Source: a virus. Taken from it: a DNA stretch of 64,000 nt. Numbering within the stretch: the stretch's first letter is position 1; every line of letters begins with the position of its first letter. Below are positions 22,160-39,232 of this stretch, in pieces. The position numbers were made by a program, and so were the translations under genes. The stretch is taken from the IMG/VR virus record IMGVR_UViG_3300036985_002246, positions 96,001 to 160,000 of that record, one strand, 5' to 3'. Under the pieces are notes generated by a model that did no database searches, was not told the origin of the DNA, and was given only the letters and a program-made list of their open reading frames with translations.

Positions 22160-22786
22160 ATGAACCCCAGCACCCCCCGGAAGTTCAACATTCTCGTTGC
22201 CGCCCTCAAGACACCCTCTGACCCAAGCAGAGGGCCGAGCGGCAACCCGACCGTCTCCCGCACGGGGTTCACGCTTCAGCAGGTGGTTCTGCCGAACGGG
22301 ACGACCCGCATTGGCGGACCCACCGCCGTCATTCCGCCCCCGAGCGCCCTCGCCCACACGGCAGCAATTGTGTGCGGAAACGGGGAGTACTGGGACCCCA
22401 GTGTGACAGTGCCTGGGCCGTTCTACTACGAGGAGGAGGTCTCCCTCTTCGACCAGTACGTCACGGCCAGCGCAAACTTCGGCATCGGCATGGGCTCAGG
22501 CACCGGACCCGCCGCCGCGATTGCGACCTCGCTCGCCACCTCGCTCGGGTCTTACCCGGACATTGACGCCCTCGCTGTTGGCAGCACCGTCTACGTCACG
22601 TCCTTCCGCCCTGAAGCCACCCTCCCGATCAAGGCGACTGCCGACGAGTCCGCCACCTTCGGGGCTCCCCCCTTCCTGGTGTATGGTCCTGGTGGTGTTC
22701 TGCTGTCCGTTGGGCCAGAATACCGGCAGACGTTCTTCGTGACGAAGACCAACAAGACACAGACGCCTCCTGTCTCTCTCCCGTGA
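22160..22786 (+). CDS. Hypothetical protein
   Basis: Tiles the operon. Confidence 0.6.
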   Translation: MNPSTPRKFNILVAALKTPSDPSRGPSGNPTVSRTGFTLQQVVLPNGTTRIGGPTAVIPPPSALAHTAAIVCGNGEYWDPSVTVPGPFYYEEEVSLFDQYVTASANFGIGMGSGTGPAAAIATSLATSLGSYPDIDALAVGSTVYVTSFRPEATLPIKATADESATFGAPPFLVYGPGGVLLSVGPEYRQTFFVTKTNKTQTPPVSLP

Positions 22787-23544
22787 AGAGGTGGGGGCTG
22801 AACACGGCGGGGTTCAGAATGAGCAGCAGAGAGCTAGACGGTCTGGACGCTTCAAGCGGCACAGAGGTCGAGAACGACCCCGCAGTCGCCCGGATCATCA
22901 AAGGCTTCGTCGCCCCTGAGGGGGCGCTTCGAGTTCGAGTAGCAGACGAGAAGGGCAAGGTCTGCTGGCGCAGAATCGACGAGGTCCGTGCCACGGACGC
23001 GATCAATCTGACCACGCAGGGCCAGCCCCAGTGGATGTTCAACCCCGTGGGCCGCCCCCGTCAGAAGAACCTCGCGGAGGTTGCCCCTCCGGTCAACCAA
23101 CTCGTCGGGGACCTCCTGCTGATCAAGCAGGCCAACCTCCGGTCGGACCCGGTGATCCTCGCAGCAGAGGCCACACCTGAGTCGGCGGAGGTCCTCAATC
23201 AGGTGCTCCTTGCAATTGCGGAGGAGGCCGCCTCAATCCGGTTCGAGCGTCAGGAGGCCGAGCGCAACGGGGAGGAGACCTCCTCCCTCTCAATGCGCCG
23301 GGTCATGGCACTCAAGGCGATCGGCGACACCTGGATCAAGCGCAAGGAGCAGATCCAGCACGCCGCCGTGGACATGGACAGCGCCGCCTTCCAGGAACTC
23401 TTCAAGTTTATCAGCGAGACGTTCTCCCGCGCAATGACCGCAGCGGGCGTCCGCCAGGAACTGATCGACGCGGTCTTCTCGCAGTTCTCGAAAATGCTCG
23501 ACGACGAGTGGAAGCGCGAAGCCAACACCAGAATGACGGAGTGA
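22783..23544 (+). CDS. Hypothetical helical protein, possible small terminase
   Basis: Immediately upstream of TerL; function from position only. Confidence 0.45.
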   Translation: MKRWGLNTAGFRMSSRELDGLDASSGTEVENDPAVARIIKGFVAPEGALRVRVADEKGKVCWRRIDEVRATDAINLTTQGQPQWMFNPVGRPRQKNLAEVAPPVNQLVGDLLLIKQANLRSDPVILAAEATPESAEVLNQVLLAIAEEAASIRFERQEAERNGEETSSLSMRRVMALKAIGDTWIKRKEQIQHAAVDMDSAAFQELFKFISETFSRAMTAAGVRQELIDAVFSQFSKMLDDEWKREANTRMTE

Positions 23545-23550
23545 TCCGTC

Positions 23551-25392
23551 GTGAGTCTGGGCAACCTAGCGATCTCGGGAGCACGAGCGGCTTCCCCTAG
23601 CTCGGCAAGTCGGGCCGTCGCCTCGATCACCGAGTTCATTGAGGAGCCCTGGGGGCTCCAAATGAAGCTCTTTCCGGTCCAGAAGGTGATCCTCAAGGCT
23701 CACTACGGGATCGAGCTAGACGACAAGACCCCGTTCCAGATCTCGGATTGGCGTCGGCAGAAGTTCATGTCGATGACCGAGAAGCAGTACCTGGAGTACC
23801 TCTTCAACGAGGGCCGGGCGAATATCAAGGAGGTCGTCCCCGGAGAGGACCGACGGGAAATGATCCTGTCGATCGGACGCCGAAGCGGCAAGACCACCCT
23901 GTCTGCCTGTGTCTCAGCCTACGAGACGTACAAGCTGATCAGCAAGGGCGACCCGCAGGGGTATTACGGCCTCCCGGCCTCGAACATGATCCAGTTGATC
24001 TCTGTCGCCACGGACAAGGACCAGGCTGGACTGCTCTACCAGGAGGTCTCCGGGCACTACAGAGGGTGCCCCTTCTTTGCCCCCTACATGGCGAACAACA
24101 CCATGTCCTATGCGCGCTTCCAGACGCCGAAGGACGTGGAAAAGTACGGGCAGTTCTCCGAGAACCCAGACGCGAAGGCGACGATCAAGGTCACGTTCCG
24201 GTCCTGTATCGCCAAGGGCTTGCGCGGTGCCGGTAACGTCGTCGTCATTCTCGACGAGGTCGCCCACTTCACCGACGCTGGGCAGTCGTCGGCGGACGCC
24301 GTGTACAACGCCGTCGTCCCGTCTACCTCAGCCTTCTCGCCGAAGGACCCCAAGGACGTTCGGATCCCCACCGGGCCGGTCGAGGCCCGCGTCATTCTGA
24401 TCTCGTCCCCGTTGGGGCGGCAGGGGCTGTTCTACAAGTTGTTCCAAATGGGCATGGGCGGAGGCAGCGTCTCCGCCAACATGCTGTGCATTCAAGCGCC
24501 CTCCTGGGAGGTGAACCCGACGATCCCCGCCTCGGAGTTCGAGAAGCACTACCTGAAGGACCCAGGCGTCTTCTTCACGGAGTACGGCGGCGAGTTCACC
24601 GACCGCACGAGGGGTTGGATTGAGCGCGAGGAGGACGTTGTCGCCTGTATCGACAAGAACCTCCGCCCTCTGATCCGTGGTATCCCACGCCGCCCCCACT
24701 TCCTCGGATTGGACTTGGGCCTCGTCGGCGACGGCACAGCTATCGCCATTGGCCACATTGACGAGACCGGGAAGATCCAAGCCGACCTGATCGACCAGGT
24801 CAAGGCGGGCGAGGGCAAGTACGTGGACAAGGAGCGTCTCGACTTCGACGACGTGGCCAACTGGATCAAGGAACTGAGCGAGCGGTTCTACATTGCGGAG
24901 GGCATTTTCGACCAGTGGGCAGGCATTCCCCTGGAGCAGGCGCTCGTGAAGCGTGGGCTCCAGCAAATGAAGGCCGTGCAAATGACGAAGGTGCTGACCT
25001 CGCAAATGTTCCAGAATTTCAAGGACATGCTCTGGGACAAGAAGCTCCTGCTCTACGACTTCCCCGTGGCCCCGCACGAGAGCCACTGCGGCTATATCAA
25101 GGAGCTTCTGGAGCTTCAGGCCCGCTACCACTCGAAGTACATAACCACCGTCGAGGCCCCCAATGTCGAGGGGAAGCACGACGACTTGTCCGACGCCCTG
25201 ATCCGAATGGTCTGGGTCGCCTCCAACCGACTCAGCAAGCAGCCACATATCGCCCGGTCAGGAATGTCCCTGAGCGGACAGGGCGGCCCGTTTGGTTCGC
25301 CTATGGGGACCGCTCGTAGAAGGCTCCACCAGAGTGGAAGCCACGAGTCGAGAATGGTCCCCAGGGGTCCGTCGAGAAGGCCAACACGGTGA
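23551..25392 (+). CDS. terL: Terminase large subunit
   Basis: Walker A GRRSGKT; Walker B VILDE; ISSP coupling motif; nuclease LGLDLG...D, HDDLSDAL. Confidence 0.9.
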   Translation: MSLGNLAISGARAASPSSASRAVASITEFIEEPWGLQMKLFPVQKVILKAHYGIELDDKTPFQISDWRRQKFMSMTEKQYLEYLFNEGRANIKEVVPGEDRREMILSIGRRSGKTTLSACVSAYETYKLISKGDPQGYYGLPASNMIQLISVATDKDQAGLLYQEVSGHYRGCPFFAPYMANNTMSYARFQTPKDVEKYGQFSENPDAKATIKVTFRSCIAKGLRGAGNVVVILDEVAHFTDAGQSSADAVYNAVVPSTSAFSPKDPKDVRIPTGPVEARVILISSPLGRQGLFYKLFQMGMGGGSVSANMLCIQAPSWEVNPTIPASEFEKHYLKDPGVFFTEYGGEFTDRTRGWIEREEDVVACIDKNLRPLIRGIPRRPHFLGLDLGLVGDGTAIAIGHIDETGKIQADLIDQVKAGEGKYVDKERLDFDDVANWIKELSERFYIAEGIFDQWAGIPLEQALVKRGLQQMKAVQMTKVLTSQMFQNFKDMLWDKKLLLYDFPVAPHESHCGYIKELLELQARYHSKYITTVEAPNVEGKHDDLSDALIRMVWVASNRLSKQPHIARSGMSLSGQGGPFGSPMGTARRRLHQSGSHESRMVPRGPSRRPTR

Positions 25393-25652
25393 GTACACGA
25401 AACGCCAAGAGCGACCCGCTCAAGCCTTCGAGGGCAGACTACCGGATCCTGAAGAAGATCCTGGAGTCCTCCTCGATTGAGGTGGTCCACGTCCCCGCCG
25501 AGTACGACCTGGTTCTCGCTGTCTTCGAGAAGGCAGGCGGGAACTGGGAGCGCCTCTTCGACGGCTCCGCGAACGACCTCCACCTCCTCAAGAGGGTCGC
25601 GAAGCTCGCCTACAAGCACGAGTACCTGACCCATGCCCCTGCGTGGGATTGA
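25389..25652 (+). CDS. Hypothetical protein
   Basis: GTGA overlap with TerL. Confidence 0.55.
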   Translation: MSTRNAKSDPLKPSRADYRILKKILESSSIEVVHVPAEYDLVLAVFEKAGGNWERLFDGSANDLHLLKRVAKLAYKHEYLTHAPAWD

Positions 25653-25674
25653 ACTGCGGTAAGGTTCAGAGCAC

Positions 25675-25980
25675 ATGAGCCGCCTACGCGCCCAGCTATC
25701 CAGGTCCGAGATCGATCGGAAGGTGGCCACCGCCCTGTCAGGGGTGGAGCGCACGGTTCTGTCAACGCTCCAGGAGTGCCACCAGTACGCACGTTCAGTG
25801 GGGAACCCGTTGGAGGCTGCTCGAACCAAGCGTGTGGTCCGTGACCTGGAGAAGGTGCTGGGGGCGCTTTCCGGAGTGCGTCGTGTCAGTCCTGTCTACG
25901 ACGCCGACGACAAGGACCTTCAGTCGTCCGAGCCCACTCCGAAGCCGAAGCGCCCGGCCCCTCCCCCTCCCACGGCATGA
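25675..25980 (+). CDS. Hypothetical protein
   Basis: Between TerL and portal. Confidence 0.55.
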   Translation: MSRLRAQLSRSEIDRKVATALSGVERTVLSTLQECHQYARSVGNPLEAARTKRVVRDLEKVLGALSGVRRVSPVYDADDKDLQSSEPTPKPKRPAPPPPTA

Positions 25981-25991
25981 AGTGAGCTTCC

Positions 25992-27695
25992 ATGAGAACC
26001 AACAAGCAGACACAGGACGCTGACGCCAAGGAGGTCAGGAAGATCTCCAAGCGGGCGAACGTCGAGACCGGTCGGCCTCGCCGTGTCGTTCTGAGTGCCA
26101 TGCGCTCGAAGGTCGCCTTCCCCTCGACAGGCGGAACGTCGTCGGCGACGGCGGGCAACTTCTACTCCCCGGAACTCTCCACCGATTTCCTCGAACTGCC
26201 CCAGTCGGCGGACGAGAAGCGGAACTACTACCGGTTCTTCTACGCGGCGGACCCCTTCGTCGGGCAGGCCGTGGACCTTCACACGGAGCTTCCGCTCTCG
26301 AAGATCCGGCTCAGCCAGCCGAAGGCGAAGAACAAGGACATTGCCGACGCTTCCCTCGCCTTCTGTACCGCATGGGCCAAGCGGATCGGTCTGCTGCACC
26401 GAATGATTGAGATCGTCCACGACTACAACCTCCTGGGGGAGGTGTTCGTGTTCTGCGAGGACGACTCCCCGGATATGCCCGAGGACGTTGAGTACGAACT
26501 CGTCCGGGAGATCGACGAGGAGAGCGGCCACCCCGTCGAGAACAAGAAGCAGCGGGCCGACTGGGCTGAGCGAGCCTCGAAGTGGCTCCTGAAGAACTAC
26601 AAGGGCTGGTCGGCGATCCGGGTCCTGCCCCCCGAGCAGATCCACATGGAGGGCTTCCCCTTCACGGACCAGAAGCTGATCGAACTGATCCCCGACAGCA
26701 AGACGAAGGACGTGATCTCCCGCGCCGACTCGGGCGACCCACACGCTCTGCGCGTCGTTCGGTCCATGCCCAACGAGGTCGTCGAGTCGATCCGCAACGG
26801 TGGGAATATCCCACTGAACACCGACCCGGACGCAGGCTCGTTCGTCTACTACATGGCTCGCAAGAAGAGCCAGTACGAGCCGCGTGGCCACTCAATCCTG
26901 GAGCGGTGCCTCCGCATTCTCGTCTACCGCGACAAGCTCCGCCAGGCGCAGACGAGCATTGCCTCCCGCCACATGACGCCGATCCGGCTGATCTGGGCAG
27001 AGGACGCTAGCGCCGCCGACGTGGACGCGATCCGCGAGCAGGTCGAACTGGCTCTCCAGGACCCCGACTACTCGATCGTCACGAACTTCCAGTTGAACTG
27101 GGAGGAAATGGGCAGCCAGCAGCGGCTCCTCGAACTGTCCGGGGAGTACGAAATGACCGACCGGCAGTTGTACGCCGGTCTGGGGGTCACCGAGTCACTC
27201 CTCTCGGGCGAGTCAAGCTACTCGGGCGACCGGATCAACCTGGAGGTGATCAACACCAGGTATATGCTCCTGCGGGAGATCCTCCAGGACATGATTGAGG
27301 ACAACTTCCTCCGGCCAATGTGCCGTCGAATGGGCTTCGTCGAGGTGGACGAGGCGGGCAACGAGACGGTGATCGTGCCTGCCCTTTCGTTCACCAGGCT
27401 GGCCCTCCGGGACAACGCCGACACGTTCGACGCGCTCTTCAATCTGTATCAGAAGGGCTCCCTCGACGTGGACATTATCCTGGAGCTTCTGAACATTGAC
27501 CCCCACACCACGAGCGAGAAGCTCAAGCGCGATATGTTCACGGTGAACGACTCGAAGTTCAACGACGTGCTCGGGGCGATCTACTCGGAGGCCGGGCGTG
27601 TCCTCGCTGAGAACAGCGACGTGATCACGAAGATCGCCCAGAACGTCGGGCTGAAGTACGTCAAGCCAGTCGAGAAGGAAGAGGGGAGGTTCTGA
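25992..27695 (+). CDS. Portal protein
   Basis: 567 aa after TerL; FYAADPFVGQAVD; LLGEVF; RVLPPEQI; YEPRGHSILER; helical C-half. Confidence 0.8.
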   Translation: MRTNKQTQDADAKEVRKISKRANVETGRPRRVVLSAMRSKVAFPSTGGTSSATAGNFYSPELSTDFLELPQSADEKRNYYRFFYAADPFVGQAVDLHTELPLSKIRLSQPKAKNKDIADASLAFCTAWAKRIGLLHRMIEIVHDYNLLGEVFVFCEDDSPDMPEDVEYELVREIDEESGHPVENKKQRADWAERASKWLLKNYKGWSAIRVLPPEQIHMEGFPFTDQKLIELIPDSKTKDVISRADSGDPHALRVVRSMPNEVVESIRNGGNIPLNTDPDAGSFVYYMARKKSQYEPRGHSILERCLRILVYRDKLRQAQTSIASRHMTPIRLIWAEDASAADVDAIREQVELALQDPDYSIVTNFQLNWEEMGSQQRLLELSGEYEMTDRQLYAGLGVTESLLSGESSYSGDRINLEVINTRYMLLREILQDMIEDNFLRPMCRRMGFVEVDEAGNETVIVPALSFTRLALRDNADTFDALFNLYQKGSLDVDIILELLNIDPHTTSEKLKRDMFTVNDSKFNDVLGAIYSEAGRVLAENSDVITKIAQNVGLKYVKPVEKEEGRF

Positions 27696-27995
27696 ATGAA
27701 GCTCAAGATCACCCGCCCGGACGGGACAGTCCTCGAAGCTGAGGGCACCGTCGAGGAGTGCGAGCGCCTTGCGGGTGCGGGGCACCCGCTCCCGGTCCAG
27801 TACCCAATCTACGTCCATCTCCCCTACCAGCCGGTGACCGTCCCCGTCTACCCGACGTACCCGGTCCAGCCGTACCCGTACCCGTACTACGTCGGGGACC
27901 CGATCGGTGTGACACCGACATGGGGAGTGCTCCAAGGGGCGACGGTTGACGGGGTCACCTTCACGTACACAGAGCCTGCCCCGCTTCGGGCGTGA
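27696..27995 (+). CDS. Hypothetical Pro/Tyr-rich protein
   Basis: Abuts the portal stop. Confidence 0.5.
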   Translation: MKLKITRPDGTVLEAEGTVEECERLAGAGHPLPVQYPIYVHLPYQPVTVPVYPTYPVQPYPYPYYVGDPIGVTPTWGVLQGATVDGVTFTYTEPAPLRA

Positions 27996-28047
27996 CACGG
28001 GGCGTCGCGGTTCGCTTTCTATGGCGTGCCCAGGCTAGGAAGCTCCC

Positions 28048-28497
28048 GTGACACCTCGCAGGTCAGTTCTCGCGTCGGACCTACTTCCGATCATGCACCC
28101 CCTCTACAACCTGAGGGAGATCTGCAAGCAATCCGCTCTGCTGGAGGACCACCTCAACAACGAGCGGAAGCGGTGCGAGGACTGCATTCGGAAGCACTTC
28201 CTGACGATCGAGGCCCTCTACGAGGAGGCCCTCTCGCTCGATAACAAGCAGAAGTGGTCCAACCAGATCGTGGGCAAGGCTGACCTCGTTCGGTCGCTCC
28301 AGGAGCGGTGGATTGACGAGGGTGATCCCCTGGAGATCGCGCAGGAACTGCGTGAGATCCGCAAGGAGTTCGCCCCGCTCTGCTTCGACCTTCGCGGAAT
28401 GACCGAGGAGTCACGGCTCGCCTCAGGCAGGGTCTCTCTTGCCAGGCACGTCGCGGACGTACACCTCGCACGTCGTCCGAGGCACACGGGGTCCTGA
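28048..28497 (+). CDS. Hypothetical protein
   Basis: CEDCIRKH; typical codon usage. Confidence 0.6.
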   Translation: MTPRRSVLASDLLPIMHPLYNLREICKQSALLEDHLNNERKRCEDCIRKHFLTIEALYEEALSLDNKQKWSNQIVGKADLVRSLQERWIDEGDPLEIAQELREIRKEFAPLCFDLRGMTEESRLASGRVSLARHVADVHLARRPRHTGS

Positions 28498-28498
28498 C

Positions 28499-31400
28499 GT
28501 GAGTCCGATCAAGCTGCACGTCTTCGATTTCGACGGCACCCTGTTCCGCAGCCCGGAGAAGCCGGTCTGGTGGAAGGGCGGCTGGTGGGGGAACCTGGAC
28601 TCCCTCTCGGACCCGTGCGTGCCGGAGCGCCCGCCCCCTGAGTGGTGGAACGAGTCTGTCGTCTCGGCGGCCAAGCAGGCGATCAGCAACCCAGACGTGC
28701 TGGCGGTCCTGCTCACGGGCAGGGTCTCGAAGTTCTCCCTCCGCCTCAAGGACCTCCTGAACCAGGCCGGTCTGCACTTCGACTCCGTTCAGTTGAACGG
28801 TGGCGGACCGACGGAAGCCTTCAAAATGAAGGCGATCAAGGCGATCCTCGAAGAGCACCCAGGGATCCGTGGGGTCGCGATCTGGGAGGACCGGGAGAAC
28901 CACCTCCGAATGCTCGCAGACTGGATCGAGTCCAACGGGCGGGCCTGCACACCGCACCTGGTCACCGTCTCTGCCCATGCGGCAGAGTGCCGCCCCCCGG
29001 AGGACGAGCCTTCAGCCACGAAGGTGGCTGCCAAGTACAAGTCCAAGAAGAAGGACGACGAGGGGAACGTCCACTACGAGTACAGCGAGCGCCAGGTCGC
29101 TAACCGCCACAATCAGAAGGCTGAGCGGGTCGAGAACCTCCGTGGGGACATTTCCAATCTCCGCGAGAAGGTCACCAACGACCTGTCGGCGAAGGACCCC
29201 AAGAAGTACCTCCCTGCGCTCGCGGTTGCCCTGATCGACGAGACGTATGAGCGGGTTGGGAACGCTGAGAGCGCCGCCGACGGTCACTACGGGGTGACCG
29301 GCTGGTTGGTGAAGCACCTGTCCTTCGAGGACGGGGAGGCGGTCTTCCGGTACGTCGGGAAGTCCGGGGTCAAGCACGAGAAGGTCGTGTCAAAGGCCCC
29401 GGTCGTGAAGCTCCTCAAGAAGCTCGTCAAGGGCAAGGGGAAGGGCGACCAGGTACTCGAACTGGACGACTTCTCGGTCAAGTCAGAGGACGTGAACGCC
29501 TACCTGAAGGACTTCAAGATCACCGCGAAGGACATTCGCGGGTACGGGGCGAACCAGGAAATGTGCAAGGCGTTGCGGGAGGTCCGCCGGGAGGGTCCAG
29601 ACCTCCCACGCGCCCGGAAGGAACGCGACAAGATCCTCAAGGAGGAGTTCAAGGACGCGCTGGAGGAGGTCGCGGAGATCGTGGGCCATGAGCCTGCCAC
29701 CCTTCGGTCGGACTACCTCGTGCCGGGCCTCGAAGACTCGTTCATGAAGGACGGGACGATCCTCGCCACGTTCAAGTCGTCCAAGGCGGCCACGAAGACC
29801 ACCTCCGAGAAGGAGGACGAGGCCGTGGACGCCCTGATCAAGCCGAGCCCCAAGCTGAAGCCGCCCCGCGACGACCTCAAGAAGCGCCGGATCGACCTGG
29901 GTGACGACGACCTGGACAGCGGGGACGACGACCTCTCGCTCAACTTCAAGGACGGGGCGGCTCGGGTCGCAATGGCCCTCCGGGTCGCTCAGGCGTTCCT
30001 GAAGGTCGCGATCGTCTTCTCCACCGAGGAAGCCAAGAAGAAGTACCTCGAAGAGCACCCTGACGCGGACGCCGACAGCCACACCGTGGAGGAGTCCGAG
30101 AAAGGCTCCCCAGCAGAGGGTGAGGGGAAGCCCAAGGAGAAGTCCAAGAAGGACGACTCGGCGGAGGCGAGGGATCTCGCGTCGGAGGAACTGGACGAGA
30201 AGGCCAAGAGCCTGGTGTCAGCCCCTTCGCTTGACAGGGGCACCGCTGCCCACGTTGACGGGGTGCTGAACTCGCTGCTCAGGTCAATGCCGGAGGGTCA
30301 CGCCAAGGAGTTCCTCGACGGGATCACCAAGGCGCGGGACTCCGACCGGGACGCCCTGGCGGCTGGCAGGCCGCCGAAGCGGACGCCCCCCGACAAGGCG
30401 AAGATTGACGACAGCAAGAAGAAGCTCGACGACCTGAACTCCAAGGTCAGTGGGCTCCAGAGGGAACTGGATTCCGGCAAGGGGAACGCCGCCGAGATCC
30501 AGGCTCACGTCAAAAAGCTCACTGAACTCCGGGACAAGGTTGGGGTGGAGCTTCAGGAGGACTTCAAGTCCTACTACGCGCACGAGGCGCTGAAGTCAGC
30601 AGCGCGGAACCCGCTGACCTTCATTGACTCCGACCCCAAGCCGCTCGGGAAGGGCGGGGCGAAGGACCGTGTCAAGGCCAGCCTGGAGCGGTTCAAGGGC
30701 ATGACGGCGGAGGACCGGGCAGCGACTGGGGCCGCCTTCAAGAAGACCGTGACCGAGGCCCAGAAGGAGCGCGCCAGCCTGGAGGAGAAGCTCTCCTCAG
30801 GGGACTCCTCTGACCCCAATCGTGCAGAGGACCAGAAGAAGCTGGAGTCGCTCAAGAGCCAGATCGAGCACCTCGACGCCGATTGGCGGTCCCTGGAGAT
30901 CTCCGCGCTCGTCAGCGGCGACAAGAACGCGGCCTCCCGGATTGGGAAGGGCACCCAGGCGCTCGTGAAGGCTCTTCACGAGAGCGGCCAGGACGTGGAG
31001 GACATTGTCGATTCCGGTATCGGGCTCCTAGGGTCTGACCCTGACCCGAAGGCGCTGGAAGACATGATGATGCGCCTCAAGCCCGAGCACATGGAGTCTG
31101 CCCTGCGGGAGATTGATCCCAAAATGGCGGACACCTGGAAGAAGCTCGTCGAGTCCGGGGAGCGCGGGAAGATTGAGAACGCCCAGTCGATCTTCGCGGC
31201 CCTGCTCACCGACGTGGCCCTCGAAGACGCTGACCCGGACCTGGCCGGTCGTGCCGTAGGGGAGCAGACCAAGAGCAAGACCAAGAGTGAGCCGAGCGAC
31301 CTCTCGGGTCCGGAGGACGAGGAGGAGGAGACGCCCCCCTATGAGTCCCCGCTCCAGGACGCGGTTGGGGATTTGGTCAAGCTCGACATTCCCGTCCCAG

Positions 31401-31555
31401 GCGAGGGTTCAAGCAAGGAACCGGCTCCAGAGGTGCCCCGCAGCCAGCAGAAGCAGGACTCCGTGGAGCGCGTCGCTGCTAGATTTACGTCGTCCCTGTT
31501 CCCAATCCGGGCGACTGGCTCGTTTAGTTCCTTATCCCATGACCCTTTAGGGTAG
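28499..31555 (+). CDS. Fusion: HAD phosphatase (Swiss-Army-Knife RNA-repair type) + DNA topoisomerase IB + charged C-terminal domain
   Basis: HVFDFDGTLFRSP, LLTGR, AFK, WEDR; TopIB residues ERVGN, YVGKSG, KDIR, GHEP, RSDY. Confidence 0.85.
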   Translation: MSPIKLHVFDFDGTLFRSPEKPVWWKGGWWGNLDSLSDPCVPERPPPEWWNESVVSAAKQAISNPDVLAVLLTGRVSKFSLRLKDLLNQAGLHFDSVQLNGGGPTEAFKMKAIKAILEEHPGIRGVAIWEDRENHLRMLADWIESNGRACTPHLVTVSAHAAECRPPEDEPSATKVAAKYKSKKKDDEGNVHYEYSERQVANRHNQKAERVENLRGDISNLREKVTNDLSAKDPKKYLPALAVALIDETYERVGNAESAADGHYGVTGWLVKHLSFEDGEAVFRYVGKSGVKHEKVVSKAPVVKLLKKLVKGKGKGDQVLELDDFSVKSEDVNAYLKDFKITAKDIRGYGANQEMCKALREVRREGPDLPRARKERDKILKEEFKDALEEVAEIVGHEPATLRSDYLVPGLEDSFMKDGTILATFKSSKAATKTTSEKEDEAVDALIKPSPKLKPPRDDLKKRRIDLGDDDLDSGDDDLSLNFKDGAARVAMALRVAQAFLKVAIVFSTEEAKKKYLEEHPDADADSHTVEESEKGSPAEGEGKPKEKSKKDDSAEARDLASEELDEKAKSLVSAPSLDRGTAAHVDGVLNSLLRSMPEGHAKEFLDGITKARDSDRDALAAGRPPKRTPPDKAKIDDSKKKLDDLNSKVSGLQRELDSGKGNAAEIQAHVKKLTELRDKVGVELQEDFKSYYAHEALKSAARNPLTFIDSDPKPLGKGGAKDRVKASLERFKGMTAEDRAATGAAFKKTVTEAQKERASLEEKLSSGDSSDPNRAEDQKKLESLKSQIEHLDADWRSLEISALVSGDKNAASRIGKGTQALVKALHESGQDVEDIVDSGIGLLGSDPDPKALEDMMMRLKPEHMESALREIDPKMADTWKKLVESGERGKIENAQSIFAALLTDVALEDADPDLAGRAVGEQTKSKTKSEPSDLSGPEDEEEETPPYESPLQDAVGDLVKLDIPVPGEGSSKEPAPEVPRSQQKQDSVERVAARFTSSLFPIRATGSFSSLSHDPLG

Positions 31556-31652
31556 GGTGCGCCGCATCCTTTCAAACCTGGTTCTGACAGACTCGGGACC
31601 GAGACAACGGATGCGTCGATCCCACCCCACGACGACACACAGGAGAGACTCC

Positions 31653-32228
31653 ATGACCGTTCGTAAGATGGCTACTGCACAGGGTGCGCGTCGGGTGACT
31701 TCGGGTCTCGACCGCTTCGCCTCGCTCTTCCAGGGCAACCACGAGTCCCTGGGCATTCCGAAGAAGGTCGCCATGGACTTCGCACTTCGGTGCGACATGC
31801 TCTCGGACGCGATCGACCGCCGGTTCAACACCAAGAACGCGGGCTACGTCGATCCCTCGACGATCGGCAAGGAAGTCCCCGGCCCCCTCGTCATGGACTC
31901 GAACAACCCGTTCATGTCGGGTGAGTTCACGCAGGAGAAGTTCTACGCGCTCGCCCAGAAGCAAATGAGCGGCGAACTCGCGGCGAACGCAGCGGCTCAC
32001 GTCGCCGACCCGAAGCTCGCGGCGCTGATCGCCAAGCAGGCCGCGAAGCTCGCCTTCGCCGTCCTCAAGCAGGCGAAGGCTGCCGAGGACGAGAAGGAGT
32101 CCGAGGACGTGGCCGAGGAGCCCGCCAAGGAAGCCGCCAAGAAGTCGGAGGGCGAGGAGCCCGACGGCGACGAGGGCGAGGACGCCGAGAAGACGGCCTC
32201 GATCTTCGGTCTCTTCGAGACGAAGTAA
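31653..32228 (+). CDS. Hypothetical head/scaffold-related protein with acidic C-tail
   Basis: AGGAG RBS; shares acidic repeats with the scaffold. Confidence 0.65.
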   Translation: MTVRKMATAQGARRVTSGLDRFASLFQGNHESLGIPKKVAMDFALRCDMLSDAIDRRFNTKNAGYVDPSTIGKEVPGPLVMDSNNPFMSGEFTQEKFYALAQKQMSGELAANAAAHVADPKLAALIAKQAAKLAFAVLKQAKAAEDEKESEDVAEEPAKEAAKKSEGEEPDGDEGEDAEKTASIFGLFETK

Positions 32229-32237
32229 GGTCACCCC

Positions 32238-32822
32238 TTGTCCTCCCGCAGGGGCAACTACGCTGACTTCCAGGCACGGGCCTCCGCCTTTTCGGTGGGG
32301 GACCGTGTGTTCACTATGGTCGGGGCAAACCCGGCCATTGGTGGGACTGTGGTCGCCGTATGGCCCGCGATTGGGATGATCGATGTTCAGTTCCCGCACG
32401 GGGCCTCCAGGTACCCGGTCGAGGACATGGTGATCGACAACTCCGACACCTTCGAGAACTTCGGTGACTTCGCGGCGGACGGGATCCCCGGAGGTACGCC
32501 CACGGTCTCGGTGCCCGGAGGCCCAACCCCGCTCCTGAAGGACCAGCGGGAGGAGATCACCGAGGAGGCACTCACGCGAGTGGCCAGCCGGGTGATCGAA
32601 GCCCACGTCAAGAAGGCGCTCTACTGGGACGCCCCTGACCGCAAGTACCGAATGAACCGGGGCGAGCTTGAGGCAGGCGTTCCGACCTGCCCGAGGTGTT
32701 CCGGAGTGGGCCTCCGCAAGGTGGTTTACAAGCGTGAAGACGGGCGGAACGAGAAGCTCCACTGCTGCCCTGACTGCCTCTTCCTGATCCGCCGGTCCGA
32801 CATTATCGGAATGGAGGACTGA
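32238..32822 (+). CDS. Hypothetical protein with C-terminal Zn ribbon
   Basis: CPRC...CPDC; KKA|LYW. Confidence 0.65.
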   Translation: MSSRRGNYADFQARASAFSVGDRVFTMVGANPAIGGTVVAVWPAIGMIDVQFPHGASRYPVEDMVIDNSDTFENFGDFAADGIPGGTPTVSVPGGPTPLLKDQREEITEEALTRVASRVIEAHVKKALYWDAPDRKYRMNRGELEAGVPTCPRCSGVGLRKVVYKREDGRNEKLHCCPDCLFLIRRSDIIGMED

Positions 32823-32825
32823 ACC

Positions 32826-34295
32826 ATGCCGTTCCTCCGGTACGCCAATGCGCGGGTGACGCACCCCCATGTCCGGGACTCGCTCTGGGACAACGTGAGG
32901 GTCGCGTCGGGGAACGTCCGTTCCGACCGGAACCTGGTGGACCAGGCGTCGAAGATCCTCAAGGCGGAGTTCGACCCCAAGCAGTTCCTGCTGACCCACG
33001 CCACGATCGTCGCGTCGGTCGATACGATCGTCGTTCCGAACGTCAAGGTCGGGCGGACCACCGAGAACGGCAAGCAGATCGTCCGCAAGACGGCCAGCTT
33101 CCGGATCAAGGCTGACTGCGACAAGTACATCAACAACAACCTCGACTCCTGGGCGAGGCCCGTCCTCCTCAAGAGCTACCCGACGTTCATTGGCGGCCAC
33201 TCGTTCGTCGAGCACGTCCAGGTCGAGGACCTCTCGAAGGGCCGGATCATTGACGCCGTGGCCCGCGACGTTGGTGACAGCGTCTACGTTGACATTCTCG
33301 TCGCCAACGACCGCAAGCACGCGAGCCTGATCAAGGAGATCGAGTCCGGGGAGCTTTCGACGCTCTCCATGGGCTGCTCGATTGACGGCTCGACCTGCAC
33401 GAAGTGCGGCCACTGGGCGGCTGACGAGACCGAGTTCTGCGACCACGTCCGGTACGAGAAGGGCAACACCTTCTACGGTGAGGACGGCCAGAAGTACCGG
33501 GTCGCCGAGTTGTGCGGTGACGAGAGCCTGGACCCGAACGGCGGGGTCATGTTCATTGAGGCGTCCTGGGTCAAGGTGCCTGCCTTCACGGGTGCGGTCG
33601 CCCGGAACGTGATCACCGTGGACACCGGCTCCGACTCGAAGAAGACCGCTCAGAAAATGAAGCGCGTCTTCGAGTCGCCCGCACGGCAGGCCGACCCGAC
33701 CGCCATGAAGAAGGCAGCCTCCGACCTGACCGCCGACGATATGTTCGACGGGGAGCCGTCGGAGGAGGGGGCACCTGAAGAGGCAGCCCCGCCGCCGCCC
33801 CCAGCGCCCCCTCCCTCCCCTCTCCACGGGATCCAGGACGAACTCAAGAAGTTCATTCTGGACAACGTGCAGGAGCAACTGAAGACCGAGCTTCGGAAGA
33901 CGAAGATCGACGACCAGACGCTCCCCCCCACGGACGCCCCGAACGACACCATAGTCAAGCAGGCAGCGGCCAATCGCCTTGCGGGCATGAAGAAAGCCTA
34001 CACCGCGTCCCTCCGGGAGATCGTCGCGACCTCCCTGACGGACGTGGACCTGCTGGACCGGGTTGCGACTCTCAATCGAGAGATTGGAATTTCGGTTCCC
34101 GTTTCCCTCTATAGGGCAATGCTAAAGGTTGGAGCCCGAAGTTCGTATTCGGGGGTCAATCCTTTTCTGAGGGCAGCCTCTAAGGCTCTAGGACATCAAC
34201 CTACCCCCAATGAGGCGCGGACAATGATTCGTCTCGCGTCCTTGTTGGAGGCACACCGGTACTCTCGGCGTCACGCCGACACGAAGCGATCCTGA
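32826..34295 (+). CDS. Prohead (maturation) protease
   Basis: FVEH; LSMGC; CTKC...CDH insert; FIEASWVKVPA; located before scaffold and capsid. Confidence 0.75.
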   Translation: MPFLRYANARVTHPHVRDSLWDNVRVASGNVRSDRNLVDQASKILKAEFDPKQFLLTHATIVASVDTIVVPNVKVGRTTENGKQIVRKTASFRIKADCDKYINNNLDSWARPVLLKSYPTFIGGHSFVEHVQVEDLSKGRIIDAVARDVGDSVYVDILVANDRKHASLIKEIESGELSTLSMGCSIDGSTCTKCGHWAADETEFCDHVRYEKGNTFYGEDGQKYRVAELCGDESLDPNGGVMFIEASWVKVPAFTGAVARNVITVDTGSDSKKTAQKMKRVFESPARQADPTAMKKAASDLTADDMFDGEPSEEGAPEEAAPPPPPAPPPSPLHGIQDELKKFILDNVQEQLKTELRKTKIDDQTLPPTDAPNDTIVKQAAANRLAGMKKAYTASLREIVATSLTDVDLLDRVATLNREIGISVPVSLYRAMLKVGARSSYSGVNPFLRAASKALGHQPTPNEARTMIRLASLLEAHRYSRRHADTKRS

Positions 34296-34305
34296 AGGAG
34301 ACAAC

Positions 34306-35811
34306 ATGACGACCCGACGCCGCCTGACCCAGTCCGCTGACCGCAAGGCTTCCGCACCCCCGGCAACCCCCGGCTACCAGGAGGGGACCAATCACCCTGC
34401 CTACACGCAGCCGGACCCCGACGCGAACCAGTACGAGAACGGTGACACGTCCTCGTGGGCGGAGGACCCGCACCCCGGCCCGTACCCGAACACCCCGCCC
34501 CCGGCGACCCCCGGCACGAACGCGCCCCAGGGCCACCCGGCGACGGACCCGAAGCACTACTTCCCCGCCGGAGTCGGCAAGGAGGCGTCGCGCAATCTCC
34601 GTGCAGCCATGGAGCACAAGGCGGCGAAGTGCATTCGGATCGCGCAGGCCATGTTCGGGCGCAAGGCGTCGGTCCAGGCGATCGAGGACCAGGCTCTCGA
34701 CCTCATGAACCTCTCGGACCGTCAGATCCAGGCCATGCTTTCGCGGATCGCGGACCAGGCGAAGGAAGGCCCCGAGGCCAACTACACCCTCACGCCGCCC
34801 CGCACGGGTGACGACCTGCTCGCCGACGACCTGCTCGTGGACGACGAGGACGTGATCGTCCCCGCCGCCGCCAAGGCCGCCAAGAAGTCCGAGGACGAGG
34901 CGGAGAAGGAAGTCGAAGAGGGCGTCAAGCCGGAGGACGAGGCCGAGGCAGCCGCCAAGAAGGCCGCTCACTTCAGCCGCCTCGCCGCCTTCTGGTCGAA
35001 GGCCGCCAAGAAGGCTGCCGAGGACGAGAAGGAGTCCGAGGACGAGGAGCCCGTCAAGGAGGAGCCCAAGAAGGAGGCTCGCAAGTCCGTCAAGGCGGAC
35101 CAGAACGACCCGGCCACCTACATGGCTGAGGACGACGAGGAGCTTCTCGTCGAAATGATGGCCGAGGAGGCTCTCAAGCAGGCCAAGGCTGCTCGTCTCG
35201 CGAAGCAGAAGCTGATCGCCGCCAAGAAGTCCGAGGACGAGGACAGCGACGAGGACAGCGACGAGGAGAGCGACGAGGCCCTGCTCGAAGAGATGGAGAA
35301 GGAAGCCGCCAAGCAGTCCGAGGACGAGAAGGCGTCTGCCAAGAAGTCCGAGGGCGAGCCCGACGGCGACGAGCCCAAGGCGGAGGACGAGGGAGCCAAG
35401 AAGGAGGCTTCCGACGACCTCACGATCGCCGATATGCTCGCCGACATGAACGAGCCGCTGGCGGACGAGGACTTCATGGACGACCCCATGTCGCTCATGG
35501 ACGAGTCGGACGACATGGGCATGGGCGACGTGGAAATGGGCCTCCTCTACGGTGGCCGCTTCGCCAAGAAGTCCGAGGACGAGAAGGAGCCTGAGGCGAA
35601 GGAGTCGGAGGAGAAGGAGCCCGAGGCGAAGTCCGCCGCTGCTCGCACTGCCGCCGCCAAGCGCACCGCTGCTCTCAAGCCCCAGCCCCGCCTCGCCTCG
35701 ACCGGCGTGAAGACGCTCGGTGCGGTCAGCAAGACGGCTGGTACGTCGGAGATCTCGGACCTCTCGAAGCTGTGGGAGTCCGCTCCCGACGTGTCGAAGA
35801 TCTTCGGCTGA
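34306..35811 (+). CDS. Acidic low-complexity scaffolding protein
   Basis: Repeated AKKSEDE units; between protease and capsid genes. Confidence 0.65.
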   Translation: MTTRRRLTQSADRKASAPPATPGYQEGTNHPAYTQPDPDANQYENGDTSSWAEDPHPGPYPNTPPPATPGTNAPQGHPATDPKHYFPAGVGKEASRNLRAAMEHKAAKCIRIAQAMFGRKASVQAIEDQALDLMNLSDRQIQAMLSRIADQAKEGPEANYTLTPPRTGDDLLADDLLVDDEDVIVPAAAKAAKKSEDEAEKEVEEGVKPEDEAEAAAKKAAHFSRLAAFWSKAAKKAAEDEKESEDEEPVKEEPKKEARKSVKADQNDPATYMAEDDEELLVEMMAEEALKQAKAARLAKQKLIAAKKSEDEDSDEDSDEESDEALLEEMEKEAAKQSEDEKASAKKSEGEPDGDEPKAEDEGAKKEASDDLTIADMLADMNEPLADEDFMDDPMSLMDESDDMGMGDVEMGLLYGGRFAKKSEDEKEPEAKESEEKEPEAKSAAARTAAAKRTAALKPQPRLASTGVKTLGAVSKTAGTSEISDLSKLWESAPDVSKIFG

Positions 35812-35854
35812 TCGCCTGACCGTCGGCTGAGAGGCCCAATCGAGGGCCAAGTAG

Positions 35855-35893
35855 AGGGGCTGAGTGGATTTTCCACTCAGCCCCTTCGCTTTT
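35855..35893 (+). terminator. Intrinsic terminator-like hairpin
   Basis: Perfect 14-bp inverted repeat aggggctgagtgga-ttt-tccactcagcccct, then tcgctttt. Confidence 0.7.
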
Positions 35894-36023
35894 GTCTCAA
35901 TACCAATCCCTTACTACGACAGCCCTACTGTTTGGGTTGTCCCGTCTGCTTCGGCAGGCGGAGGCTTCGAGACACGATCCAACACCACTCTCCCGAACAG
36001 GGAGCAGAGACAGGAGCAAGGCT

Positions 36024-36710
36024 ATGCCTTTGCTTGGACAGGCGAGCGGTGGGTGGACGGAGAGCAGCAGCGCGCTGAGGATTCTTCACGTCGGTATTCG
36101 GAATACCGTCGGAGTCCTCACGGATGATGCGTTCCGTCAGCAGAACCCGCCGATCATCAACACCGCAGGAACCGTCACCACGTCGCCCGGAGCCCTCACC
36201 GAGGTCTTCGGCGTTCTCTCGGGCTCGGTCGCGTTCACGCGCCCGGACGCGGGAAGCAACCACATCGGCGGTCCCGTGACCGTCGCCGTGAGCGGCGTCA
36301 CCGCAGCCCAGGCGTTCAACACGCGCCCGCTCGGCTGCTTCATCAACAACGCCGCAGGCAACCCCTACGAGAACCTCCCCGCGAGCGCCTCGAACAAGGG
36401 TCCCTACGTCGCTGCCATGGGCACCTACGGGAACCGTCTCTACGAGACGCAGTTCCTCATGGCTGCCGCGCCCTTCCTGATCGGCGCGTCGCTCCCCTAC
36501 CTGGTCGGCCAGGACCTGATCTCGTCGGTCAACGGCTACCTCATGCCGCGTTGGGTGGACAACGCGGGTGCGGTCGTCTCGCTCGACATCGCGGGCTTCT
36601 CGCTCGAAGTCACCAACGGCCATGGCGCTGGGACCTCGCAGACACTGGGCGTTCTCAAGATGGTCCCCGACTCGGTCATGACCGAGTGCGTCTACGACGC
36701 GCGCGTCTGA
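36024..36710 (+). CDS. Putative capsid decoration/cement protein
   Basis: AGGAG RBS; directly upstream of the MCP; beta/Gly-rich. Confidence 0.6.
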   Translation: MPLLGQASGGWTESSSALRILHVGIRNTVGVLTDDAFRQQNPPIINTAGTVTTSPGALTEVFGVLSGSVAFTRPDAGSNHIGGPVTVAVSGVTAAQAFNTRPLGCFINNAAGNPYENLPASASNKGPYVAAMGTYGNRLYETQFLMAAAPFLIGASLPYLVGQDLISSVNGYLMPRWVDNAGAVVSLDIAGFSLEVTNGHGAGTSQTLGVLKMVPDSVMTECVYDARV

Positions 36711-36735
36711 ACCGAAGGAAAGGAGACACCCAGTC

Positions 36736-37614
36736 ATGACAACCAACGTCAACAACGCTGTCAAGCAGAAGATCATCAGCGACTACCTCAAGACAGCGTC
36801 GGGCCGCAACAAGCTCGCCGCGTCTATGACGCAGCCGCTCCGCACTCGCCGGGACTACATGAGCGTCGGTCGCAAGACCTTCCTCGTGGAGCAGCTTCCC
36901 GACGGCGCGCTTCCGATCTACGACAAGGACCCGGACGTGACCGCGTTCGTGGTCGGCGAGGAGGGCGAGAACATTCTCGCTATCACCAAGCCCCGTCGTG
37001 TGATCTTCCCGCTGTTCGAGATCGCCTCGAACCCGGAGATCCCGCTCACGCAGATCAAGGAGCGTCGCTTCGACCTGATCGAGCGCGCCCAGGATCTCGC
37101 TCGGGCGCAGATCCAGGCTGCTGAGGACGAGCGCGTCTTCGCGGTTCTGGACGCAATCGCAATCAACGGCTTCGACTCGCTTCCGGGCGGGACGAACCCG
37201 GACGTGCCGGTCATCGCCCCGATCACGGGCGCTGTGCTCGCGGACGCCTTCTCGCTCATCGAGCGCCACGACCTCCGGGTCGCTCGCGTGTACATGAACG
37301 CACGGGACTACGCGGACATTCGCAAGTTCGGTCGCGACATTCTCGACATCGAGAGCCAGGCGACGCTGCTCAAGACCGGCCTCCAGGCGACCCTCTGGGG
37401 CGCTCAGGTCATCACGAGCCGCCTCGTTCCCGTCGGCACCGTGTACGTCTGCTGCGAGCCCGAGATGTTCGGTCGGATCCCGGTCCGCACGGAACTCACG
37501 GTCCTCTCGGCGGACGACCCGAAGGCCCGCACGATCGGCTTCAGCGTCTTTGAAAATCTCGGCATTGGCGCGTACAACCCCCGTGGGTTGGTCCGCCTCA
37601 CGATCACCCGCTGA
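36736..37614 (+). CDS. Major capsid protein (HK97-like fold)
   Basis: 292 aa; strong RBS AAGGAG; FEIASNPEI...RAQIQAAEDERVF; position after protease and scaffold. Confidence 0.85.
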   Translation: MTTNVNNAVKQKIISDYLKTASGRNKLAASMTQPLRTRRDYMSVGRKTFLVEQLPDGALPIYDKDPDVTAFVVGEEGENILAITKPRRVIFPLFEIASNPEIPLTQIKERRFDLIERAQDLARAQIQAAEDERVFAVLDAIAINGFDSLPGGTNPDVPVIAPITGAVLADAFSLIERHDLRVARVYMNARDYADIRKFGRDILDIESQATLLKTGLQATLWGAQVITSRLVPVGTVYVCCEPEMFGRIPVRTELTVLSADDPKARTIGFSVFENLGIGAYNPRGLVRLTITR

Positions 37615-37661
37615 TAGCGGTTGGTCGCTGAAAAGCCGGGACTCAAAGCGAGCCCACCCGC

Positions 37662-37701
37662 CAGACCCGGTTCCCGAAAGGGGGCCGGGTCTGTCGCTTT
37701 C
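37662..37701 (+). terminator. Terminator-like hairpin after the MCP
   Basis: cagacccggttccc-GAAA-gggggccgggtctg, then tcgctttc. Confidence 0.7.
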
Positions 37702-37761
37702 TGGTTGCATTTTGGAGCATTGTCTGCCACATTTTGCCCAATGTGAGCTATCGACTGCCCT

Positions 37762-38685
37762 GTGTCTCCGGAGGAGCTTCGCCGTCTCGTGAGGGACGAG
37801 AAGTTGACCGACGCAGAGGTGGCTGCACGCCTCCCTGGTGGGACAATCAAGCGCGTTCAGTCGTGGCGACGCCGATACGCCATTGAGGTTGTGGCTCGGT
37901 GGGAGCGGGGTGAGGTACCACCTATCGAGGGGCAGTTGAGGTCCCTCTTGGTGGGCTCAATGCTGGGGGACGGTCGCATTGTTCACCGCACCCATGCTGC
38001 TCACTTCGCAGAGGGTCACTGTGAAGCCCAACGCCCCTACTTGGAGTGGAAGGCCAGTCTCTGGGGCGCTTGGGCACGCCCAATCTTCGACGTGCCTGAC
38101 AAGCGGGGGTACGTCCACTCTCGAATGAACACAGTGGCGCATGGGTCACTCGTCCCGTGGCGTGACCTGTTCTACGCCACCAGAGACAAGGGTTGGAAGC
38201 GGCTCCTGCCGGAGGTGGCGGACCTCGTAGACGAGTTTGCCCTGGCCGTCTGGTACCTGGACGACGGGTGTGCAGCCTGGTGGCCTACGATCACCTTCGG
38301 GGCAGACGAGCAGAGCCGCCAGGTCGCCCTAGCAATCTTCGAGAAGTTTGGGCTCAATCCTCGCTGGAGCCCTGTGAAGGGGAAGACCGGTGAGTTCCAC
38401 ATGGAGCGTGAGGACACAGCCCACAGGTTCCTCGACCTGATCCAGCCCCATGTCCCGGAGTGCATGGCCTACAAGCTCCGTGACTTTGGCTTCCAGGGGC
38501 CGCACTACCAGGTCCGACAGAAGGTGTCTCCGGACAGACTCCGGGAGCTAGCCTCCCAAGGCACTCCGATCCGCCGCATGGCGAAGCTCCTGGGTGTGGG
38601 TGCCTCTACAGTGGACCGCTGGCTCCTGGACCTGGGTATCCCCCATGCTCGAAAGAAGGGCCGACCCTCGCTACTTGCCCTGTGA
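37762..38685 (+). CDS. Free-standing LAGLIDADG homing endonuclease with terminal HTHs
   Basis: LLVGSMLGDG and ALAVWYLDDG motifs; PYLEWK. Confidence 0.85.
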   Translation: MSPEELRRLVRDEKLTDAEVAARLPGGTIKRVQSWRRRYAIEVVARWERGEVPPIEGQLRSLLVGSMLGDGRIVHRTHAAHFAEGHCEAQRPYLEWKASLWGAWARPIFDVPDKRGYVHSRMNTVAHGSLVPWRDLFYATRDKGWKRLLPEVADLVDEFALAVWYLDDGCAAWWPTITFGADEQSRQVALAIFEKFGLNPRWSPVKGKTGEFHMEREDTAHRFLDLIQPHVPECMAYKLRDFGFQGPHYQVRQKVSPDRLRELASQGTPIRRMAKLLGVGASTVDRWLLDLGIPHARKKGRPSLLAL

Positions 38686-38706
38686 GGGCGTAAGGGTGTG
38701 GTCGGG

Positions 38707-38735
38707 TTGCTCCTCGCTTAGATTGGGTGTAGCTT
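38707..38735 (+). promoter_or_regulatory. Sigma-70-like promoter for the tmRNA
   Basis: TTGCTC-17 nt-TAGCTT, ending 10 nt before the mature 5' end. Confidence 0.6.
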
Positions 38736-38744
38736 CAAATCTCA

Positions 38745-39154: not shown

Positions 39155-39157
39155 GTG

Positions 39158-39197
39158 GGGGCGGGCAACCTTTCAAGTTGCCCGCCCCTTTCCTTTG
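39158..39197 (+). terminator. Intrinsic terminator after the tmRNA
   Basis: ggggcgggcaac-7 nt-gttgcccgcccc, then tttccttt. Confidence 0.75.
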
Positions 39198-39232
39198 GTG
39201 CTTCGGTGGACTCTCAATAAAGTCCATGGGGC

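Follow-up and report, generated by a model that had tools for sequence, protein, structure and literature searches.

Some phages have multi-enzyme proteins whose genes adjoin those of the portal or MuF proteins, or which are fused to these, and these so-called polyvalent proteins have been inferred to be packaged in the capsid and injected (Iyer et al. 2017, PMC5512222). The gene considered here resembles them and was found in a window of 64,000 nucleotides, i.e., bases 96001–160000 of the 199,475-bp IMG/VR virus record IMGVR_UViG_3300036985_002246, to which CheckV assigns a completeness of 45%, so that the phage genome is expected to measure ~450 kb. It lies at 28499–31555 of the window, in the slot between the genes of the portal protein and the prohead protease, and for this position it will be called the slot gene, and its product the slot protein. 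The latter joins a HAD phosphatase domain to a type IB topoisomerase (TopIB), followed by a linker, an all-helical domain and a disordered tail, and it bears several copies of a short peptide, [KR]VAxx[FYW], referred to below as the tag. We regard it, at a probability of about 0.5, as an enzyme-carrying ("polyvalent") head protein of a huge phage, which would be built into the procapsid and travel with the DNA. Its association with the head and its modular behavior are well supported by comparison with related genomes.

The features in common with the polyvalent proteins of PMC5512222 are the presence of unrelated enzyme domains in one large polypeptide, the location of the gene beside those of the portal or terminase, the free shuffling of domains, and the recurrence of 2H esterase and GNAT modules; the role inferred for those proteins is capsid loading and delivery with the DNA. 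The slot protein has at least two unrelated enzyme domains in a single polypeptide (HAD and TopIB), it is encoded with the portal and terminase head genes, and its domain content is shuffled among its relatives. In contrast, neither TopIB nor HAD_SAK_1 is among the domains reported in PMC5512222, where "topoisomerase" occurs in a reference title only, nor does that work describe the tag or the backbone found here, which consists of a domain like the product of the neighboring gene o28048, the linker, the tag and the helical domain. In addition, searches of Pfam and PHROGs found in the slot protein no MuF, portal-fusion or autoprocessing peptidase domain, all of which are frequent in polyvalent proteins, without being defining.

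TopIB enzymes require neither ATP nor Mg, and poxviruses carry one in their virion. The TopIB of the slot protein has the two-lobe fold and the R-K-R-H-Y catalytic set of the poxvirus and bacterial enzymes (variola/vaccinia, D. radiodurans; PF01028), but it is only ~20–22% identical to them and resides inside a 1018-residue multi-domain protein, flanked by predicted tag helices and encoded in the head operon of a tailed phage. Other phage-encoded TopIBs are those of the cultured jumbo phages PaBG (gp84), Lu11 (gp197), phiRSL1 (ORF108) and Motura, which have been placed under DNA topology functions (Iyer et al. 2021, PMC7824862); unlike the slot protein they are stand-alone proteins of ~560 residues, with ~30% identity to it over part of the core. 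The TopIB genes of phiRSL1 and Lu11 are found among metabolic or unassigned genes, away from the head genes, and that of PaBG lies three genes upstream of the capsid gene, adjoining the gene of the virion protein gp83. A second-hand statement in PMC7247149, for which Yamada 2010 is an unconfirmed source, places a topoisomerase in the phiRSL1 virion proteome. In PaBG (L004 47677–65988), genes for a HAD-like protein, a SprT/Spartan-like protease, an MmcB-like nuclease, a thymidylate kinase and TopIB stand in a row just upstream of the capsid genes, possibly forming a set for the repair of topoisomerase adducts.

Regarding the other domains, the HAD phosphatase shares with T4 polynucleotide kinase-phosphatase and with the Swiss Army Knife RNA-repair HADs (PF10307) the DxDxT motif and the capless type, which is a type acting on macromolecular ends, and differs from them in having no kinase or ligase partner domain and in being fused to TopIB. 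The internal head (inner-body) proteins of T4 and phiKZ offer an analogy for the proposed route, as they are encoded in the head operon, loaded into the procapsid and partly ejected; they are cut at x-x-Glu by gp21-type proteases, whereas no such consensus or protease family is established here. A search of the literature returned no description of TopIB in a phage head protein: TopIB is outside the polyvalent catalogue, and the jumbo-phage enzyme has been treated only as a DNA-topology gene.

Domain architecture of the slot protein

The open frame spans 28439–31555, and the GTG start at 28499, one base past the TGA of the upstream gene, agrees with the starts of homologues and yields 1018 residues, the length of the protein on record (P0123). 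The AlphaFold model of this protein has a mean predicted local distance difference test (pLDDT) of 79.7, and it divides the chain into the regions given here together with the other features of the gene.

28499–31555, plus strand: slot gene, GTG start, stop codon included, 1018 residues; HAD phosphatase, TopIB, linker, helical domain, disordered tail
28499–28969, plus strand: HAD_SAK_1-type phosphatase domain, residues 1–157 (Pfam PF10307, E = 3.5e-22), folded in the model
28526–28540, plus strand: HAD motif I, D10-x-D12-x-T14
28970–29029, plus strand: disordered joint, residues 158–177 (pLDDT <50), leading into the first tag copy, KVAAKY (29021–29038, motif scan)
29030–29788, plus strand: type IB topoisomerase, both lobes, residues 178–430 (Pfam PF01028, E = 6.7e-28; pLDDT >90)
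29252–29254, 29360–29362, 29537–29539, 29687–29689 and 29714–29716, plus strand: TopIB catalytic codons R252, K288, R347, H397 and Y406
29789–29947, plus strand: conserved linker module, residues 431–483 (ATKT..EKEDE..PKLKPPR..DDDLSLNFK, from alignments), in a low-confidence stretch of the model, residues 431–553
29963–30019, plus strand: triple tag RVAMAL-RVAQAF-LKVAIVF, residues 489–507, a predicted amphipathic helix
30158–31216, plus strand: all-helical domain of long helical hairpins in the predicted model, residues ~554–906 (pLDDT ~90)
31217–31552, plus strand: acidic, proline-rich tail, residues 907–1018, disordered in the model, with the last tag copy, RVAARF, at 31469–31486

An earlier reading of the window, made from its letters alone and referred to as the first-pass annotation, had proposed a Swiss-Army-Knife-type HAD at the N-terminus, and this assignment is borne out by the match to PF10307 (HAD_SAK_1), which covers residues 25–153 with 79.6 bits against a cut-off of 25.6, and by the HAD motifs, all of which are conserved: D10, D12 and T14, T73 and R75, K109, and E130 and D131 are each at least 90% conserved among 15 HAD-bearing relatives. 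The domain also matches phrog_415, polynucleotide kinase, more weakly than PF10307, and Foldseek reports for it weak likeness to the Lem4 HAD, MDP-1, the T4 Pnkp phosphatase and Pnkp1 (E 0.04–0.13). It looks like an active capless phosphatase of the nucleic-acid end-healing type.

For the TopIB, PF01028 (Topoisom_I) matches residues 202–401 with 98 bits against a cut-off of 23.7, and a search of the window's own genome gave 101.5 bits. The complete R, K, R, H, Y set that had been read from the sequence holds: R252, K288, R347, H397 and Y406 align with R137, K174, R239, N280 and Y289 of the D. radiodurans enzyme (PDB 2f4q, E 1.1e-11), and the pentad is invariant across an alignment of 68 sequences of relatives. 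The structure model recovers the two-lobe TopIB fold and a folded HAD, and Foldseek is consistent with both; its matches to the TopIB part include variola TopIB (2h7f, E 7e-10, 265 of 314 columns, template modelling score 0.62) and the D. radiodurans enzyme (3m4a, E 1e-9). The enzyme thus looks to be of the poxvirus/bacterial type and catalytically intact. A protelomerase or tyrosine recombinase was ruled out, as Xer and integrase folds reach E ~1e-2 in Foldseek, compared with 1e-9 to 1e-10 for TopIB.

The C-terminal part, previously described as a coiled coil, is instead a predicted folded all-helical domain with disordered stretches on both sides. Its pLDDT of ~90 in the full-length model stays at ~80–90 when residues 540–1018 are modelled alone. 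Searches with Foldseek (PDB and BFVD) and with VIA-align (wide) found for it only generic helical hairpins (Z ≤9.2) and no specific fold, and Pfam only a sub-threshold ABC_tran_CTD coiled coil. The domain is rare, with 11 representative relatives in 1.84 billion proteins; among the eight large relatives scanned with Pfam, seven contain TopIB, and the matched stretch of the query is C-terminal to TopIB. The linker preceding this domain is conserved in all four proteins of one alignment and in the consensus of a second, and the corresponding segment (residues 431–500 here) was found in 28 of 41 related loci. These include loci without TopIB, and the linker is therefore part of the head-protein backbone and not of TopIB.

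The full architecture recurs in locus L009 (1124 residues), in P0124 (1032 residues) and in ~8 distant clusters of 1077–1394 residues. Because the same three-part architecture is found in these distant clusters, and the protein is on record as called (P0123), an assembly chimera, which the first-pass annotation had named as a possible undoing of its reading, is ruled out; by this recurrence the fusion of HAD and TopIB is genuine and conserved.

The head operon and its variants among relatives

The placement of the slot gene between portal and prohead protease genes is confirmed by the matches of its neighbors to phrog_16240 (5.5e-36) and phrog_18299 (1.1e-12). The genes around it, and the features that delimit the group, are as follows.

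23551–25392: large terminase subunit, TerL
25389–25652, plus strand: o25389, 87 residues, between TerL and portal
25675–25980: second small gene between TerL and portal
25992–27695, plus strand: portal protein (phrog_16240, E = 5.5e-36)
27696–27995: o27696
28048–28497, plus strand: o28048, small helical protein of 149 residues
31557–32228, plus strand: o31557, at most 223 residues, with an acidic scaffold-like C-terminus
32238–32822, plus strand: o32238, 194 residues, Cys-rich C-end
32826–34295, plus strand: prohead protease with a long C-terminal extension (phrog_18299, E = 1.1e-12)
34306–35811, plus strand: acidic, A/E/K-rich scaffold-like protein, 501 residues
35854–35886: strong terminator-like hairpin with a 15-bp stem, after the scaffold-like gene
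36736–37614, plus strand: major capsid protein (phrog_2522, E = 5.3e-50)

From the portal to the scaffold-like gene the intergenic gaps measure 0–10 nt, except for 52 nt ahead of o28048, which fits a single transcription unit, and the slot gene therefore belongs to the head-morphogenesis operon. In the portal-to-scaffold unit no strong terminator-like hairpin was found upstream of 35854, and no sigma-70 promoter-like site was found within 22500–39500. The scaffold-like protein encoded at 34306–35811 is extremely acidic, with repeated KKSEDE-like units, and fits a scaffold; the hairpin at 35854–35886 closes the operon. As for o31557, it was considered as a relative of the scaffold and set aside, the likeness being weak and compositional (E 0.07). 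The prohead protease matches just phrog_18299 and phrog_2774, with no sequence match in Pfam or PDB, and Pfam likewise returned nothing for o27696, o28048, o25389, o31557 and o32238.

Close relatives detected by tblastn are all uncultured huge phages, and a megablast of 20 kb against cultured phages gave no match. The order TerL, portal, slot protein, o31557, o32238, protease, scaffold is kept in LR745208 (L001), L003, L009, L010 and L011, with TerL identity down to 46%, and within this constant frame the slot is filled in different ways: a HAD-TopIB protein of only 508 residues in L001, the full architecture in L009, and a 2H-TopIB protein of 780 residues in L011. Both separate and joint encoding of the parts are seen, a point that the first-pass annotation had put forward for comparison. 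Locus L010 has three genes, for 2H plus PolyA_pol, for TopIB, and for HAD-linker-tail, whereas in L003 a single open reading frame (ORF) of 1765 residues combines a 2H esterase with TopIB and the linker, takes in an o28048-like insertion and has a C-terminus like o31557, and in L049 a single ORF of 1146 residues fills the interval from portal to protease. A NUMOD3 homing endonuclease gene (L010 10861–11628) separates the TopIB and HAD-tail genes of L010.

The small neighbors of the slot gene take part in the same rearrangements. The homologue of o28048 follows TopIB in the L003 ORF, is N-terminal to TopIB in P0049, and comes first among the slot-protein domains of L049, L025 and others; that of o31557 is the C-terminal domain of the L003 giant protein; and in L049, L026, L032 and L045 the slot protein incorporates that of o32238 by fusion. 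By homology, therefore, four genes of the window are one protein in other phages, and it is well supported by these comparisons that the split and fused forms look like a modular head "polyprotein".

To view the slot independently of its topoisomerase, 80 loci were collected by the portal only, of which 41 had a detectable protease. TopIB lies between portal and protease in 22 of these 41. The TopIB-less loci encode there a protein of 750–1260 residues made of an o28048-like domain, the linker, an unassigned middle and sometimes an o32238-like end. In relatives the slot is always filled by a protein of 750 to 2500 residues on a common backbone, with enzyme inserts that include HAD, 2H, PolyA_pol, GNAT, tRNA_lig_CPD, PAP2, Ham1 and GGCT, up to four enzyme domains per protein. 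The combinations detected by Pfam are nothing at all, PolyA_pol, TopIB, 2H with PolyA_pol and TopIB, the same three with GNAT, and TopIB with the tRNA-ligase CPD. Since the slot protein is retained without TopIB and its inserts vary, what stays constant is a backbone of the head operon, into which the enzymes are inserted interchangeably. The TopIB family itself, with 645 matches at ~55–60% identity over the core, shows HAD, 2H, PAP2, GGCT, Ham1, GNAT or a zinc-ribbon as fusion partners, or stands alone.

TopIB is encoded in all ten related records (275–619 kb; G001–G009 and LR745208), and the five relatives checked for topoisomerases of types IA and IIA (376–619 kb, four at least 92% complete) showed neither. 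The window's own record shows no other topoisomerase and, being only 45% complete, is uninformative in this respect. Where a record lacks TopIB in the slot, a divergent stand-alone copy is located at another site, adjoining DNA polymerase A and a DnaB-like helicase in G005 and an SNF2 helicase in G008, and two records, G003 and G009, have a second TopIB in addition to that of the head slot. The occurrence of slot copies beside second or replication-module copies indicates two paralogue classes, of which the slot copy is the specialized one.

In a second clade, of 230–450 kb phages, a TopIB gene for 344–351 residues (L014 10001–11056; L015 10001–11035) overlaps the end of TerL and is followed by four small genes and the portal; the last 80 residues of these proteins resemble o25389 of the window, a likeness judged by eye from the sequences and unscored.

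The [KR]VAxx[FYW] tag

The slot protein contains five copies of the tag in its wider form, [KR]-V-A-x-x-[FWYLM], against 0.16 expected, and none of 20,000 shuffles reached five. Similar enrichment is found in the slot proteins of relatives, and the 68-member family as a whole has 94 instances against 9.5 expected, 21 of them no more than 12 residues from the N-terminus and seven no more than 12 residues from the C-terminus. The strict form, [KR]VAxx[FYW], occurs nine times in the 62,311 residues encoded by the window's genome, four times in the slot protein; other copies are at the very C-end of a 148-residue protein (17202–17648) and 27 residues before the end of a 313-residue protein. Overall, three more function-unassigned proteins are tagged, encoded at 17202–17648 and 41397–42119 of the window and at 65824–66765 of the phage's own genome; in two of the three the tag is at or near the C-terminus, and one of them ends in ..RVASVARVAAKYLGRSL.

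In most family members the TopIB module opens with RVAARY. Where a TopIB of the family stands alone, its sequence starts with ..RVAARY.. and finishes with ..RVARRFL, closing in a doubled tag like that of the slot protein, and L009 carries KKVAAKF where the tail of the slot protein has RVAARF. The structure model predicts the tag copies to be short amphipathic helices. The first-pass annotation had noted K-x-A motifs at the domain borders, and the peptides are indeed present at those positions, but the unit that recurs is [KR]-V-A-x-x-[FWYLM]; SSKAAT, which it also listed, is found in its place but is not a copy of the tag and belongs to a different conserved segment (ATKT...). Its reading of K-x-A as cleavage sites is not supported, as the tag is portable and occurs at the extreme ends of stand-alone relatives and of other proteins. 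Retention at protein ends makes a docking or structural element likelier than a cleavage site.

A second portable peptide, LRxKLIRLAHxxPELRAxLLPLLK, is encoded at 39977–40051, 58523–58600, 58947–59030 and 62517–62600 of the window, and is C-terminal in one protein and N-terminal in three that are otherwise unrelated.

Possible roles of the slot protein

As a polyvalent head protein, the slot protein would draw on a backbone encoded immediately after the portal, which in the window is spread over o28048, the slot ORF (linker, tags and helical domain), o31557 and o32238. It would be produced along with the capsid protein, scaffold and protease, become part of the procapsid, attached through its [KR]VAxx[FYW] helices and through the helical domain, and then travel with the DNA. 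The TopIB, being independent of ATP and Mg, could act as a swivel for the ~450-kb DNA while it is packaged, ejected or first transcribed, and the HAD domain might clear DNA or RNA ends of blocking phosphates; in relatives 2H esterases or CCA-type nucleotidyltransferases take the place of the HAD.

Several points weigh against this reading. The position of the gene and the fusion show association rather than packaging, the close relatives are all uncultured and members are known from genes alone, and the helical domain has no fold match in the structure searches described above that ties it to capsids. The gel proteome of PaBG virions (14 bands) does not list the distant TopIB gp84. Three complete relatives showed no topoisomerase other than the slot TopIB, which may therefore serve replication also, or instead; as a sole copy it may have both functions. 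Finally, two of three replication-module TopIBs hold one tag-like peptide near the C-end, so that addressing proteins to the head may not be all that the tag does, and the idea that it is exclusive to head-slot proteins is weakened.

A different view is that the protein is an ordinary topoisomerase for replication and transcription with an end-repair phosphatase, whose gene merely sits in a late operon with no physical link to the virion. The lack of type IA and IIA enzymes in the relatives checked, the classification of jumbo-phage TopIB as a DNA-topology function by Iyer et al. 2021 (PMC7824862), and the location of the distant phiRSL1 and Lu11 genes all suit this view. We nevertheless consider it rather unlikely, because relatives show in-frame fusion to domains that are otherwise separate head-operon genes, some genomes have a second TopIB besides the slot copy, and the TopIB core is conserved across the clade about like portal and TerL. 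A role in packaging without any cargo is unlikely too: here the TopIB would be anchored to the terminase-portal motor, either at the portal or outside it, and free the twist as ~450 kb enters, the other domains being accessory and nothing being delivered to the next host. The presence of TopIB in all ten related genomes and its independence of cofactors would fit such a helper, as would the second-clade gene, directly after TerL and before the portal, with its o25389-like part recognized by eye; yet the 19 of the 41 loci without a slot TopIB package equally large genomes and have their TopIB in replication neighborhoods, and a swivel leaves the swappable HAD, 2H, nucleotidyltransferase and GNAT inserts unexplained.

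Processing of the slot protein by the prohead protease is possible, but its stronger form, a true polyprotein cut at K-x-A to free HAD, TopIB and a coiled-coil fragment inside the head, appears quite improbable. The joints between folded domains in which the tags stand are indeed modelled with low confidence, relatives have the same parts both fused and split, and PaBG and phiKZ-type phages process many head proteins. On the other hand, a cut at a tag located at the very end of a stand-alone protein would free just a few residues, the tags are predicted to be amphipathic helices and not extended linkers, SSKAAT falls outside the motif, and the protease has neither a Pfam or PDB match nor a known cleavage consensus.

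Returning to the slot protein as a polyvalent head protein, its loading into the head would mean that tailed phages share with poxviruses the carriage of a type IB topoisomerase in the particle, and that huge phages own a modular means of delivering ready-made enzymes with their DNA. It would also bear on the torsion-free packing and release of very long genomes and on the survival of the phage in the first minutes of infection, and the short tag would offer a practical means to load foreign proteins into capsids. A more speculative extension, which we hold only tentatively, is that in a large clade of 250–620 kb phages the tag and the post-portal backbone might constitute a programmable cargo-loading system that would place in the capsid a TopIB swivel independent of ATP, along with interchangeable enzymes for healing nucleic-acid ends (HAD, 2H, CCA-type nucleotidyltransferase). 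The TopIB might then act on the phage's own DNA at packaging or ejection, or seal or circularize its ends, and by analogy the system could be to tailed phages what core enzymes are to poxviruses and targeting peptides to encapsulins.

Two further observations regard the head operons of this clade. The major capsid protein is 84–98% identical across loci in which the portal is 57–85% and TerL 51–82% identical (L016–L094), and by this measure the capsid protein of the clade is unusually slow-evolving. Moreover, the head operons are riddled with selfish elements: in addition to the homing endonuclease gene of L010, a LAGLIDADG endonuclease gene directly follows the capsid gene of the window (37762–38685), a GIY-YIG gene is present in the head operon of LR745208 (L001 14730–15590), and inteins occur in the TerL and the protease of L011 (4743–7367 and 13539–17642).

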